Shown: positions 20,299 to 57,624 of the stretch, piece after piece
Numbering within the stretch: position 1 is the first letter of the stretch
Layout of the letters: every line of letters starts with the position of its first letter
NCBI GenBank assembly: GCA_001779115.1
Contig: MFJF01000005.1
Span: 142,888-206,887 of the forward strand
Length of the DNA stretch: 64,000 nt
Source of the DNA: Candidatus Gottesmanbacteria bacterium RIFCSPHIGHO2_01_FULL_40_15
GTDB lineage: Bacteria > Patescibacteriota > Microgenomatia > 2-02-FULL-39-11
Direction of reading: 5' to 3'
Position numbers and translations under genes: made by a program
Notes under the pieces: generated by a model
What the model saw: only the letters and a program-made list of their open reading frames with translations
The model's database searches: none
What the model was told of the DNA's origin: nothing

Positions 20299-21567
20299 TT
20301 ATACCGGTTGAAGAAGATAAATTTCCCGGCCAATAAACTGTCCGGGACTTGTATACAAAACAGACTGTCTTTTAGTCAACCAGCTTTTAATTTTTCCGAT
20401 TGATGCCTCCGATAGAGGGTTTATTATCCTGAAACCACCGGCAGCGATTATAGACGCATCAATAAAAATATCTTCATCAGCGCTATGATAGACAGGGAAT
20501 ACTATAACCAAACGGCCCTCTTTTTTTAAAAGTTTTCTAAAAACTGAAAAACTGTCATGATACAGGCTGGTAACAATATTTACTGATTTTTTAATCACGG
20601 CATCAGCGGGTCGTTTTAAAAGCGGCGGTCCCAAAAACGGCTCCGTAACCAGAGCATCGAAGACATCCCCTTTCAGTTGTTTGTCCAAAAGTCGGACATC
20701 GGAAGTGCGCAATGTGATTTGAAAAGATTTTTTATCAAGGCTATATGATTTAAATAACCAGTCCAGGTTCTGGCGCGAAGAATTTATAGCATATTCTGAA
20801 ATATCCGATCCGGTAATATTTTTTATACCCGACAGCACGGCTTCCATAAGAATTGTTCCTGAACCGCAAAAAGGATCAAGCAGTCTTTCCTCAGCACCAA
20901 TTCCTGACAGATTTATCAAGGTTCTGGCCAATTTTACCGGTAAAATTCCCGCTTTTTTATCAAGAGCGGGTCTTTTAATATCGCGATAAGCATATGAAGA
21001 ATAATCCTGAACTTTTTCAGTTCTTCCGACATAAATATTATCGCCGGCAGCATGAAGACACATTTCAAAACCCCGGTCCAACAGCCGGTTTTTATATACG
21101 GCAACAGAGGATAATTTTCTTCCTTTAAGTCTTAAATAACCTGATTTGAAACCGTTTATTTTCAAATTTTCCTTGATATTATTGTTAAAATCGGACAAAT
21201 GATTTTCCAGAAGTTTTATTAGCTTATTACTTTTAGCTCCGGCATCATAAATACTGATACCGAAGTGTATTTTTTTTGTTTTTTCCGGGATAAAATATTT
21301 CGTCAAAAAGTCAGATTCAAAACAGGAATATAAAGCCGCCCGGTCTTCATCCAAAGAAAGTTGCGAGATTATTCTGCCCATTTTAACAGTACCTCCCAGA
21401 CGGTCCATAAAATATCCGGTGTCAAAGATTTCAGGAAGATTAATTATGACGGCCTCCGGCCCTATTTCCTCAATTAAGAATTCAATTTTTTCCTTTTTAA
21501 GTTGTGATAATATTTCCGCAAGAGACAAAGAATAATATCTTCCGAGAATAAAGAAGTATCTGTTCAT
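20299..21567 (-). CDS. THUMP-domain class I SAM-dependent RNA methyltransferase (RlmL/Trm11-like)
   Basis: 422 aa. N-terminal THUMP-like region, SAM-binding motif I (LDPFCGSGTILMEA) and a downstream DPPY-like context. Confidence 0.7.
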   Translation of the reverse strand: MNRYFFILGRYYSLSLAEILSQLKKEKIEFLIEEIGPEAVIINLPEIFDTGYFMDRLGGTVKMGRIISQLSLDEDRAALYSCFESDFLTKYFIPEKTKKIHFGISIYDAGAKSNKLIKLLENHLSDFNNNIKENLKINGFKSGYLRLKGRKLSSVAVYKNRLLDRGFEMCLHAAGDNIYVGRTEKVQDYSSYAYRDIKRPALDKKAGILPVKLARTLINLSGIGAEERLLDPFCGSGTILMEAVLSGIKNITGSDISEYAINSSRQNLDWLFKSYSLDKKSFQITLRTSDVRLLDKQLKGDVFDALVTEPFLGPPLLKRPADAVIKKSVNIVTSLYHDSFSVFRKLLKKEGRLVIVFPVYHSADEDIFIDASIIAAGGFRIINPLSEASIGKIKSWLTKRQSVLYTSPGQFIGREIYLLQPV

Positions 21568-22296: not shown

Positions 22297-22734
22297 ATGA
22301 GATTTTTTCAGACTGTTTTAATTGCAGCTGTTTTATTTTTTTTACCTCTAAATAACCGGACTGTGTTTGGCGCCAAAAAATTCATACCAAAAAAAGGCAA
22401 TGCCAAGTCGGTTAATACGGCTTCGATAATACCTGTCAGAGTAAAATACAGAGCTGATAAGAGAGCAATTATATTTAATTTTACCGGATTTTCTAACATT
22501 ACTAGCGCTTCCTATCTTTTCAGTTACTTAAGTAACGGAATAACACAGGGAGCTGCCGGTACCATTTCTTCAGAGAATGATCCTTCGAGTCCCAGAGAAC
22601 TACTATTTGGAACATGTTCCACTTCAGTCTGTACTTTCCACACCGGACTGTCCAAGGCCGGCTTAAATATAACGGTTACAATGTCAAACGGCAAAAAAAT
22701 CAGTAAAAACTACCGGATAAAAACTTACTTTTGA
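22297..22734 (+). CDS. Hypothetical secreted protein
   Basis: 145 aa with an N-terminal signal peptide. No recognisable motifs. Confidence 0.35.
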   Translation: MRFFQTVLIAAVLFFLPLNNRTVFGAKKFIPKKGNAKSVNTASIIPVRVKYRADKRAIIFNFTGFSNITSASYLFSYLSNGITQGAAGTISSENDPSSPRELLFGTCSTSVCTFHTGLSKAGLNITVTMSNGKKISKNYRIKTYF

Positions 22735-31873: not shown

Positions 31874-32344
31874 TTACTTGACGAGAGTTTTTCCCAGATT
31901 ATCCGCCCAGGAAGCCAATTTTTCTGAATTAGTCTGCTGGTCGAGATAAAATCCGTCTATTTTCAATGAATCAACCGCCAATATCCCTTCCAAATCTTTA
32001 ACAAACTGCTCCAGATGATTAACCGCTCCGCAAAAATACGTATAGGATGAATCTCCCAGTCCTAAAACGGCGAATTTTTTACCGGTTATTTTCTTACCTT
32101 TAAAAAGCTCCATAAACGGCCGGTAATCAGGATGAGGTTGTCCCTCTAAACCTTCATAATCCCAAGTGGAAGAGGCCAGAATTACGGCATCGGCATCAGT
32201 CAGTTCTTCCGGTTGAGTATCACGGACTTCCTTCATTGTCACCTGCAAATTTTGACTCATCAGATGTTCCTGAACTATTTGGGAGGCTAACTGTGTTCCG
32301 CCTGAATTGGTGGCATAGACAAGCAGAATATTCATATTATTCAT
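31874..32344 (-). CDS. Flavodoxin
   Basis: Start set at the internal MNNMNILLVYA (the ORF-track extension runs into the SOS promoter). Short-chain flavodoxin pattern (LVYATNSGGT...SSTWDYEG...). Confidence 0.8.
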   Translation of the reverse strand: MNNMNILLVYATNSGGTQLASQIVQEHLMSQNLQVTMKEVRDTQPEELTDADAVILASSTWDYEGLEGQPHPDYRPFMELFKGKKITGKKFAVLGLGDSSYTYFCGAVNHLEQFVKDLEGILAVDSLKIDGFYLDQQTNSEKLASWADNLGKTLVK

Positions 32345-32378
32345 ATTACAATACCTGCCCCCCGGTGACAAGCGACTC

Positions 32379-32407
32379 TTGACAGGTGAACGATCGTTCA
32401 CTATAAT
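32379..32407 (+). promoter_or_regulatory. Consensus sigma-70 promoter (TTGACA-N17-TATAAT) with LexA/Cheo-type SOS box TGAACGATCGTTCA (32387-32400) in the spacer
   Basis: Read directly. The -35 and -10 are exact consensus with a 17-nt spacer. The spacer carries a perfect 14-bp palindrome matching the Gram-positive-type LexA box GAAC-N4-GTTC. It is upstream of the small-ORF/lexA/Y-polymerase operon. Confidence 0.65.
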
Positions 32408-32417
32408 AGTATTAATA

Positions 32418-32594
32418 ATGGGAAAAAAAGATAAATTCCGGCCAATGTCAGCTACTTACCTCCGGTTTAAGAAACAGCTTAAAGCCCTGGAAACAGGCCG
32501 GTTGAGGACGGTCAAAAAATTGGCGCTTGAAGCCAGGAGAGAACTTATCCTGAAAAGCCGGGTCAGCCAGTTAAGTTTATCTTTAACAGGTTGA
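32418..32594 (+). CDS. Small basic helical protein (58 aa), first ORF of the SOS operon; near-leaderless
   Basis: ATG lies 10 nt after the -10 hexamer. The stop is 3 nt before the lexA ATG. No homology recognised (MGKKDKFRPMSATYLRFKKQLKALETGRL...). Confidence 0.35.
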   Translation: MGKKDKFRPMSATYLRFKKQLKALETGRLRTVKKLALEARRELILKSRVSQLSLSLTG

Positions 32595-32597
32595 ATT

Positions 32598-33170
32598 ATG
32601 AAGCTTGAAACAGCCAAAAATTTAATCAGAAAATTCTTCCGGCAACAGAAAAGACTGCCTTCCTATCAGGAGATGTGCCGCCTTTTCGGTTTTGCCTCCA
32701 AACAGTCCAGTTTCCGCCTGGCGAAAAAACTTGTTGAGGAAGGCACCTTAAAGAAGGACGATAAAGGCAGACTTGTTCCCGGACGTTTATTTTCCGCTCT
32801 GCCTATTGCCGGAATAATTGCCGCCGGCATGCCGAGAGATGCTTCGGAGACTCTTTTAGATTCATTATCTTTTGACGATTATCTGGTGAAAAAACCGGGG
32901 AATTCCTACCTGCTGCGGGTATCGGGCGACTCCATGATTGAAGCCGGCATTAATGAGGGTGACCTGGTGGTAGTTGAGAAGGATAAATTGCCGGGAGAAG
33001 GCGATGTGGTAGTGGCTTTTATAGACGATGAATTTACCCTCAAGCATTTTTCCCGAAAAAATAGCAGAATAGCCCTGTTTCCGGCGAATAAAAAATATCC
33101 GGTGCTCTACCCCAGAAATCAACTGTCGATTTTCGGCACGGTCGTTGCAGTAATCCGGAAATACCACTGA
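32598..33170 (+). CDS. lexA: LexA repressor (S24 peptidase)
   Basis: 190 aa. N-terminal wHTH, cleavage-site region AG (IIAAGMP), Ser (GDSM) and Lys (LKHF) of the S24 catalytic dyad. Confidence 0.9.
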   Translation: MKLETAKNLIRKFFRQQKRLPSYQEMCRLFGFASKQSSFRLAKKLVEEGTLKKDDKGRLVPGRLFSALPIAGIIAAGMPRDASETLLDSLSFDDYLVKKPGNSYLLRVSGDSMIEAGINEGDLVVVEKDKLPGEGDVVVAFIDDEFTLKHFSRKNSRIALFPANKKYPVLYPRNQLSIFGTVVAVIRKYH

Positions 33171-33204: not shown

Positions 33205-33468
33205 ATGAGTGAAGTCATCAATGAAAAAATCAGCGTTATCTCTTTTTATGACAGGAATAAAGGCAAGAGTTGGCCTGTTAAGTTTTTTTGGCAGGGAAGA
33301 TCCTACAAAATCCGGCAGGTAGGCTATCATTGGCCCGCCAGAATAGGAAGGAAACTGGTTCATATTTATTCTGTTGTGGCCGAAAATAACACCTCATTTA
33401 AACTGGTGCATGATACGGAAACGCTTCACTGGATTTTGGAGGAGGTTATCGATGAATTTGCCACTTAA
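33205..33468 (+). CDS. Hypothetical 87-aa protein translationally coupled to Y-family polymerase (possible YolD/UmuD-functional-analogue)
   Basis: Overlaps the polymerase start by 17 bp. A GGAGG for the polymerase lies inside its 3' end. No recognisable motif. Proposed role comes from position only. Confidence 0.4.
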   Translation: MSEVINEKISVISFYDRNKGKSWPVKFFWQGRSYKIRQVGYHWPARIGRKLVHIYSVVAENNTSFKLVHDTETLHWILEEVIDEFAT

Positions 33469-34777: not shown

Positions 34778-35398
34778 TTATTTTTTTATCGCTTCTTCGA
34801 CGGCTTTGTCCAGATCGGTACGGGAAAAGAGATTCAGTTTTTTGCCGTTTAAAAAAAAGGTAGGAGTGGCGTCAACCCCGAATTTTCTGCCGTCTGTAAG
34901 ATCACGGTTAATCTTATCCTGATATTTTTTCTCTTTATAGGCTGCTTCAAAATTTTCTTTATCAAGACCCAACTTTTCAGCGGCTTCAAGAAGAAATTGC
35001 TCAGACAAATTTTCCTGATTTTCAAAAATATAATCATGCATTTCCCAAAATTTACCCTGTTCTCCGGCGGCTTCGGCTGCGAGGGCTGCCGGCCAAGCCT
35101 GTTCATGCTGATCCAAGGGAAAATGCCGGTATGCAAAAACCAGATTATCCTTATTGTCCTCCACAACGTTTTTCACCTGGGGATAAAACGATCCGCAGGC
35201 AGGACACTGGAAATCGGAAAATTCAATCAGACAGTTTCTCGCTTTTTCATTTCCTTTTTTATAAGAATCTGAAGTGAGAATTTCCTGACAAGTGAAAGCC
35301 GGAGCGGGCCGGGACAGGAAAAATATTCCTCCTATAACCAGAATTACCGTTACCAGGACGATACCGATTAAAAATTTTGATTCTCCGCTTAATTTCAC
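34778..35398 (-). CDS. DsbA-family thiol:disulfide oxidoreductase (thioredoxin fold), membrane-anchored
   Basis: 206 aa. N-terminal TM and the CPAC active site in an FSDFQCPACGSFYP context. Confidence 0.8.
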   Translation of the reverse strand: MKLSGESKFLIGIVLVTVILVIGGIFFLSRPAPAFTCQEILTSDSYKKGNEKARNCLIEFSDFQCPACGSFYPQVKNVVEDNKDNLVFAYRHFPLDQHEQAWPAALAAEAAGEQGKFWEMHDYIFENQENLSEQFLLEAAEKLGLDKENFEAAYKEKKYQDKINRDLTDGRKFGVDATPTFFLNGKKLNLFSRTDLDKAVEEAIKK

Positions 35399-57380: not shown

Positions 57381-57624
57381 TTCTGAAATAATAAAAAATG
57401 TTTTTCACGGAATTATTTTTCCAATGCTAAAGAATAATTGTAAGATAAAGGTAAGTATTTATGCCCCATAAAAAATAAATTGATCACTCTTCAATAACTC
57501 TTACTGATGTCTTAATTTCCTTTCACCCCGAATAATTATTCTTAACCTTCTGCTTTAATTTAAACCCGCCGCCTCATTTCAGAATAATCAGAAATTAAAT
57601 ATAAAATTTTATAAAATCATTAAT

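Follow-up and report, generated by a model that had tools for sequence, protein, structure and literature searches.

LexA repressors of Firmicutes and Actinobacteria recognize the motif GAAC-N4-GTTC (PMC3323433, PMC11442139). In the Cheo box/lexA (dinR) systems of Bacillus subtilis, Staphylococcus aureus and Mycobacterium this palindromic core forms part of a box that overlaps lexA's own promoter, and the repressor combines a winged-helix N terminus with a self-cleaving S24 C terminus. In Escherichia coli the repressor blocks its own promoter and the promoters of the error-prone polymerases (umuDC and dinB), and RecA-stimulated self-cleavage of an Ala-Gly bond by a Ser/Lys dyad lifts the block, as set out in passages of PMC8565304. 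The same passages describe HdiR (Streptococcaceae) and UmuDAb (Acinetobacter), self-cleaving repressors that are closely tied to a Y-family polymerase cassette and may control very few genes (PMC8565304). The E. coli motif is CTGT-N8-ACAG, and lexA and the polymerases of that organism lie in separate operons. For the Patescibacteria, Sanchez-Osuna, Barbe and Erill (2017; Environ Microbiol 19:3465) reportedly reconstructed the LexA network by comparative genomics, to judge by the title of their study. An excerpt of PMC7739468 lists that work among studies of LexA proteins that recognize direct repeats.

Within the window, the whole 64-kb stretch of DNA analysed here, GTGAACGATCGTTCAC very probably serves as the operator through which LexA controls its own four-gene SOS operon; the host is a Gottesmanbacteria-like bacterium of the CPR/Patescibacteria. 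Direct observations comprise the sequence features of the site, the identity of the LexA protein, the tight layout of the genes, the deep conservation of the promoter-box composite and its association with lexA and translesion polymerases. The locus resembles the Gram-positive systems in its palindromic core, in the overlap of the box with lexA's own promoter and in a repressor with an S24 C terminus and, probably, a winged-helix N terminus. It differs from them in that the core is flanked by GT/AC (GTGAAC...GTTCAC) rather than by C/G (CGAAC...GTTCG; CGAACAAATGTTCG in S. aureus), which makes it a minor variant of the Gram-positive motif. It also differs in that one box fills the whole 17-nt consensus spacer, in its CPR host, and in an operon that adds a small open reading frame (ORF), a DUF6504 gene and a Y-family polymerase gene to lexA. 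Unlike in E. coli, lexA and a polymerase share one operon, which has no UmuD. Compared with HdiR and UmuDAb, the window protein is, by its model match, a true LexA equivalog and not a CI-like or UmuD-derived repressor. Superphylum and regulator are those of the 2017 study of Patescibacteria, whereas the site is a simple inverted repeat and thus differs from the direct-repeat motifs in whose context the excerpt of PMC7739468 cites that study.

The letters at 32379-32407, ttgacaGgtgaacgatcgttcacTATAAT, resolve into TTGACA-G-GTGAACGATCGTTCAC-TATAAT (Table 1). The 17-nt spacer runs from 32385 to 32401 and the palindrome takes up 16 of its 17 bases, so that a bound LexA dimer would block RNA polymerase. 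The preliminary description had placed the palindrome within the spacer of a consensus TTGACA-N17-TATAAT promoter, and both hexamers and the 17-nt spacing can indeed be read directly from the DNA. It had also given the palindrome as 14 bp long; TGAACGATCGTTCA is present at 32387-32400, but the true length is 16 bp (GTGAACGATCGTTCAC, 32386-32401). The assignment of the site to the Gram-positive, Cheo-type LexA boxes stands for the core, GAACGATCGTTC at 32388-32399, which matches GAAC-N4-GTTC with 0 mismatches. It does not extend to the conserved half-site, which is GTGAAC and not CGAAC: in place of the C...G flanks of the Firmicutes consensus CGAAC-N4-GTTCG, the core is bordered by T...A and, further out, by G...C.

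Neither palindromy nor a GAAC-N4-GTTC match carries statistical weight by itself. The window contains two perfect 16-bp palindromes and two exact GAAC-N4-GTTC matches, and 15 matches to the latter with at most 1 mismatch compared with ~20 expected; the TGAACGATCGTTCA 14-mer has a single 0-mismatch occurrence in the 64 kb. The promoter is the sole perfect (12/12) match to TTGACA-N17-TATAAT in the window, the runners-up having 1-2 mismatches, and at up to 2 mismatches this pattern is enriched (23 observed against 13.6 expected). A position matrix built from the orthologous boxes scores the site at 28.7 bits and the next best position in the window at 5.9 bits. Hence, the significance of the site derives from the combination of promoter, box and conservation, not from palindromy. 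Pattern and position-matrix scans found no further SOS boxes in the 64-kb window. The second exact GAAC-N4-GTTC match (38735) was rejected as an SOS box; it scores 3.4 bits and lies within the NiFe-hydrogenase gene. A six-frame search for signature motifs of recA, uvrA, uvrB, uvrD and ruvB found none in the window.

The gene downstream had been called lexA, an identification that its protein product confirms. The protein scores above the cutoff of TIGR00498, the NCBI LexA equivalog model (120.9 bits against 110.95), over residues 8-189 of 190, and PF00717 (S24 peptidase) matches its C terminus with E = 1.1e-26. Its alignments with the structures 3k2z (T. maritima) and 7b5g (E. coli) run over the full length, starting from residues 8-10 and covering the N-terminal domain. 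The cleavage site Ala76-Gly77 and the catalytic residues Ser112 (GDSM) and Lys149 (TLKHF) are all in place; against E. coli LexA, AAG lies over AAG, GDSM over GMSM and TLKHF over TVKRL. We take the corresponding E. coli residues to be A84-G85, S119 and K156. PF01726 (LexA_DNA_bind) gave no match to the N terminus at E <= 0.01, and in the alignments the recognition helix visibly departs from that of LexA in both E. coli and T. maritima. By its sequence the window protein is a bona fide full-length LexA equivalog. Its closest relatives are LexA proteins of Candidatus Gottesmanbacteria MAGs (63-64% identity), followed by those of other Patescibacteria (35-47%). The identical protein is found on at least 23 public contigs, among them the NCBI MAG GCA_001779385.1 and a 92-kb JGI contig, and the promoter-operator letters are unchanged among the population variants that carry it.

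On the SOS paradigm of E. coli and B. subtilis, we infer LexA binding, repression, RecA-dependent cleavage and a transcription start near 32414-32415. A LexA dimer on the palindrome would occlude the spacer together with both hexamers, shutting RNA polymerase out of a promoter of maximal strength. Following DNA damage, RecA-ssDNA filaments would stimulate self-cleavage of LexA at Ala76-Gly77 by the Ser112/Lys149 dyad. Cleaved LexA would leave the operator, and the derepressed operon would supply the translesion polymerase, the DUF6504 protein and the small protein along with fresh LexA to reset the switch. Since a DUF6504 gene and a Y-family polymerase gene with an intact active site follow lexA, the operator would govern a four-gene mutagenesis operon. 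The evidence points to a damage network that revolves around translesion polymerases and may extend no further.

Table 1. Coordinates of the predicted SOS operon, its promoter-operator and the divergent neighbour (positions in the window)
Feature	Position	Strand	Basis
Predicted flavodoxin gene, divergent neighbour	31874-32344	-	Synteny only in two Gottesmanbacteria loci (L001, L002)
Predicted flavodoxin promoter, TTGTCA-N17-TAATAT	32343-32371	-	9/12 match; -35 invariant in L001 and L002
-35 hexamer TTGACA of the SOS promoter	32379-32384	+	Invariant in L001 and L002
Putative LexA operator (SOS box), 16-bp perfect palindrome GTGAACGATCGTTCAC	32386-32401	.	Matrix score; orthologous promoters
-10 hexamer TATAAT, abutting the box without a gap	32402-32407	+	Relatives have TATAAT or TATACT after the box
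First gene of the predicted operon, 58-aa basic protein (pI 11.4)	32418-32594	+	L001 homologue; codon-position pattern; JGI gene call
lexA, 190 aa, N-terminal DNA-binding region and S24 peptidase domain	32598-33170	+	TIGR00498; PF00717; structure alignments
DUF6504 protein, 87 aa, preceded by a GGAGG Shine-Dalgarno sequence	33205-33468	+	PF20114, 26.5 bits against a cutoff of 24.2
Y-family (translesion) DNA polymerase, 417 aa	33452-34705	+	PF00817, PF11799; start as called in public records

The genes of the predicted four-gene operon (58-aa ORF, lexA, DUF6504 and Y-family polymerase) are closely packed. The small ORF and lexA are separated by 3 nt, lexA and the DUF6504 gene by 34 nt that include the GGAGG, and the DUF6504 and polymerase genes have 17 nt in common. 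A convergent DsbA-like gene follows at 34778-35398, so the operon would end at ~34705. The distance of 190 bp to lexA that had been given earlier is correct, 190 nt separating the -10 from the ATG at 32598, but the stretch is no plain leader: it is filled by a gene of 58 codons. The ATG of this small ORF lies 10 nt past the -10, and the operon transcript is therefore probably leaderless or almost so. Of the 66 composite promoters in metagenomes that allow the comparison, 29 have an ATG 5-12 nt past the -10.

The small ORF and its counterpart in L001, one of the two Gottesmanbacteria loci, encode proteins that are 74% identical over 38 residues. At codon positions 1/2/3 the two differ by 11/5/20 nucleotides, the same bias as in lexA (57/37/112), and the codon changes comprise 12 synonymous and 10 non-synonymous ones, the latter mostly conservative. 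This substitution bias shows that the small ORF is coding. In L002, the other Gottesmanbacteria locus, the small ORF is missing through a clean ~170-bp indel, and the box lies 33 bp upstream of the lexA ATG. The small protein has no Pfam, NCBIfam or Rfam match, and a search of 5.8 billion proteins returned no homologue but the protein itself. A structured RNA leader was considered for the 190-nt stretch and set aside in favour of the coding ORF: no Rfam family matches even at E <= 1, and the fold has a z-score of only -1.4.

A second family of small proteins (63-77 aa) occupies the slot between SOS promoter and lexA in L003-L008, beginning ~70-100 nt past the box. These proteins follow the pattern MSK.Q...LN..ID.KI.RG.SY..EARRHK.L and end in a hydrophobic C-terminal tail; they have no Pfam match. 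The family, which we refer to as MSK..EARRHK, is also present in five metagenomic loci (L107, L115, L142, L162 and L190), and its hosts are Paceibacterota-like and other Patescibacteria. Homology between the small ORF of the window and that of L003-L008 was rejected, BLASTP finding nothing and hhalign giving a probability of 0.4%.

The Y-family polymerase matches PF00817 (IMS) at 7.7e-36 and PF11799 (IMS_C, little finger) at 7.7e-18 and keeps the catalytic motifs IDLNSCFASAE and SIDE. Models of DNA polymerase IV and UmuC match it below their cutoffs. In the NCBI MAG copy (L203) the polymerase looks truncated, but the gap is only a run of N. The synteny of DUF6504 is kept in L001, L002, L015 and L020. 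In 14 metagenomic loci DUF6504 ORFs lie right behind SOS-box promoters (for example L085, L087, L096, L105, L116, L122, L126, L128, L147 and L157), mostly leaderless and with a Y-family polymerase gene 250-1100 nt further on. This arrangement suggests that DUF6504 is a conserved partner of the SOS-controlled translesion polymerase. A literature search found no publications on DUF6504. The lineage-restricted small ORF, the MSK..EARRHK family and DUF6504 could be undescribed SOS-induced effectors specific to CPR and related bacteria, a tentative idea that we consider somewhat unlikely. If it is true, the candidates would be small division inhibitors, modulators of LexA or RecA, or a new accessory subunit of translesion polymerases.

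Conservation of the promoter-operator, which carries the most weight, was assessed in 20 patescibacterial loci, and in 15 of them (L001-L012, L014, L016 and L018) a promoter with the box in its spacer lies upstream of lexA. In these 15 loci the composite consists of a TTGACA or CTTGCA -35, a box reading GTGAAC-N4-GTTCAC or a one-mismatch variant of it, and a TATAAT or TATACT -10, while LexA identity falls from 64% to ~42%. L019 and L020 have a weaker variant with GTAAAC half-sites in an unchanged architecture, and the Falkowbacteria loci have GTACAC on one side of the box. The box is also found at polymerase genes. In L014 an identical box, in a CTTGCT...TATACT promoter, lies directly before the ATG of an unlinked Y-family polymerase gene, and in L015 the GTAAAC variant lies ~100 bp upstream of a separately transcribed Y-family polymerase gene. 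The reading of the window site as an SOS operator, already put forward in the preliminary description, is upheld by the identity of LexA, by the composite promoter in 15 of the 20 loci and by the published core motif. Separately, the boxes GTGGACGTCCGTACAC and GTGGACGACCGTTCCC, both diverged, stand in tandem with 8 bp between them in the Peregrinibacteria lexA promoter of L017 (3924-3963), a hint at motif drift or at the use of tandem sites in that lineage.

A scan of metagenomes with the pattern GTGAACNNNNGTTCACTATA returned 121 sites; as only boxes followed at once by a TATA -10 fit this pattern, the scan is biased against promoters of other designs. A perfect TTGACA lies 1-2 nt upstream of the box at 58 of the 121 sites, and a -35 with at most 1 mismatch at 71, with spacings of 17-18 nt. 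The first downstream ORF encodes LexA at 35 sites (a count that includes a standalone UmuD-like S24 peptidase of 129 aa in L086), DUF6504 at 14, a Y-family polymerase at 6 and an MSK..EARRHK small protein at 5. Others are integron-type integrases (7), TetR-family proteins (7), ORF6N (2) and a DnaE-like protein (1). Within 4.5 kb downstream, lexA and/or a Y-family polymerase gene is present at 61 of the 121 sites.

Several of these neighbours merit description in their own right. The integrases are integron-type tyrosine recombinases of ~477 aa (PF13495 and PF00589) behind the composite promoter in L082, L097, L100, L143, L144, L168 and L199, an arrangement that would fit SOS-controlled integrases in organisms with the GTGAAC-N4-GTTCAC motif. 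SRAP/YedK-like genes, with the N-terminal sequence MCGRF, diverge from six composite promoters (L084, L095, L132, L154, L177 and L191). The TetR-family genes behind GTGAAC-N4-GTTCAC-TATA (L098, L101, L110, L111, L112, L141 and L178) mostly have a good -35, and several come from human-gut metagenomes. Their sites are probably look-alike operators of another regulator. Since the palindrome also precedes these seven genes, it is not exclusive to LexA. The letters of the box alone are not diagnostic beyond the context of lexA and polymerase genes, and caution is called for in regulon scans that use only the motif.

On the other side of the promoter, a flavodoxin gene had been noted to diverge from the same region on the minus strand, and it does so (Table 1). 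Its predicted promoter and the SOS promoter are arranged back to back, and the spacer of the former has no box. This flavodoxin promoter appears to be conserved as TTGTCA-N17-TA..AT. Its -10 overlaps the first ATG, and a second in-frame ATG (32335) lies 8 nt past it; the flavodoxin mRNA, too, may be leaderless. No flavodoxin gene adjoins any of the 71 metagenomic composite promoters. We infer that flavodoxin is a neighbour with its own promoter.

Four other explanations of the site were weighed against an SOS operator. A palindrome that arose by chance in AT-rich intergenic DNA and regulates nothing would fit the near-chance rate of 16-bp palindromes and GAAC-N4-GTTC matches in the window. It would leave to coincidence that the palindrome falls within the sole perfect promoter directly upstream of lexA, and its conservation at the nucleotide level across distant lineages effectively refutes a chance origin, to which we assign next to no probability. 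That the palindrome is the operator of some other DNA-binding protein, for instance of the TetR family, with lexA nearby by coincidence or under another factor, is very improbable. The seven metagenomic TetR-family genes behind GTGAAC-N4-GTTCAC-TATA speak for such a regulator. There is, however, no TetR gene near the window site, the box travels with lexA in lineages whose LexA identity ranges over 42-64% and recurs at Y-family polymerase genes unlinked from lexA, and its core is the established Gram-positive LexA motif (PMC11442139, PMC3323433). Bidirectional action, in which LexA on the same box would also repress flavodoxin and make it damage-responsive, is doubtful. In its favour, only ~42-57 bp separate the box from the flavodoxin start codons (32344/32335) downstream of it, 7 bp separate the two -35 hexamers, and the flavodoxin-lexA arrangement is kept in L001 and L002. 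This synteny is nevertheless restricted to close relatives, the predicted flavodoxin promoter and the box do not overlap, and the genes divergent from the 71 composite promoters include SRAP/YedK-like genes but never flavodoxin.

The remaining explanation accepts LexA and its operator and concerns their reach: the locus could be a self-contained module that, in the manner of HdiR or UmuDAb, governs only its own translesion cassette and is not a genome-wide SOS master switch. The site would then define no regulon beyond its own operon. We regard this explanation as unlikely, though less so than the other three. It agrees with the single site in 64 kb and with the genes downstream of the 121 metagenome sites, almost all of which encode LexA, DUF6504, Y-family polymerases, integrases and similar proteins, with recA, uvrA, uvrB or ruv never seen as the first gene. 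Patescibacterial genomes are small, and minimal SOS-like networks under S24 repressors are on record in passages of PMC8565304. Against it, the protein is a full-length LexA equivalog and not of the HdiR or UmuDAb type, and the demand for a TATA -10 abutting the box biases the metagenome pattern against sites in other architectures.

Read as the operator of lexA and its operon, the site provides a clean and conserved, though predicted, LexA operator for an uncultivable CPR lineage. The 16-bp matrix GTGAAC-N4-GTTCAC could be used to scan genomes of Gottesmanbacteria and other Microgenomates. The link to error-prone polymerases fits the view, expressed in an excerpt of PMC7739468, that the SOS response has translesion synthesis at its core. 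Mechanism, motif class and autoregulatory layout are all textbook and leave the understanding of SOS unchanged; discoveries might come only from the small ORF, predicted to be co-transcribed, and from the DUF6504 gene.

Other palindromes and genes were recorded elsewhere in the window. An 18-bp perfect palindrome, AATTTTACCGGTAAAATT (20930-20947), lies inside a methyltransferase-like ORF. The perfect palindromes GTTACTTAAGTAAC (22523-22536) and TGGAACATGTTCCA (22608-22621) are 85 bp apart inside the ORF at 22297-22734. No Rfam family reached its gathering score in the 64 kb, and hence there is no tRNA, rRNA or riboswitch by this measure. An AT-only palindrome, TATAAAATTTTATA (57600-57613), is intergenic and lies upstream of a PIN-domain gene. 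The gene content of the window includes type IV pilus genes (T2SSE ATPase and pilin), a NiFe-hydrogenase large subunit, HypC, a DsbA/VKOR pair and a PAS histidine kinase.
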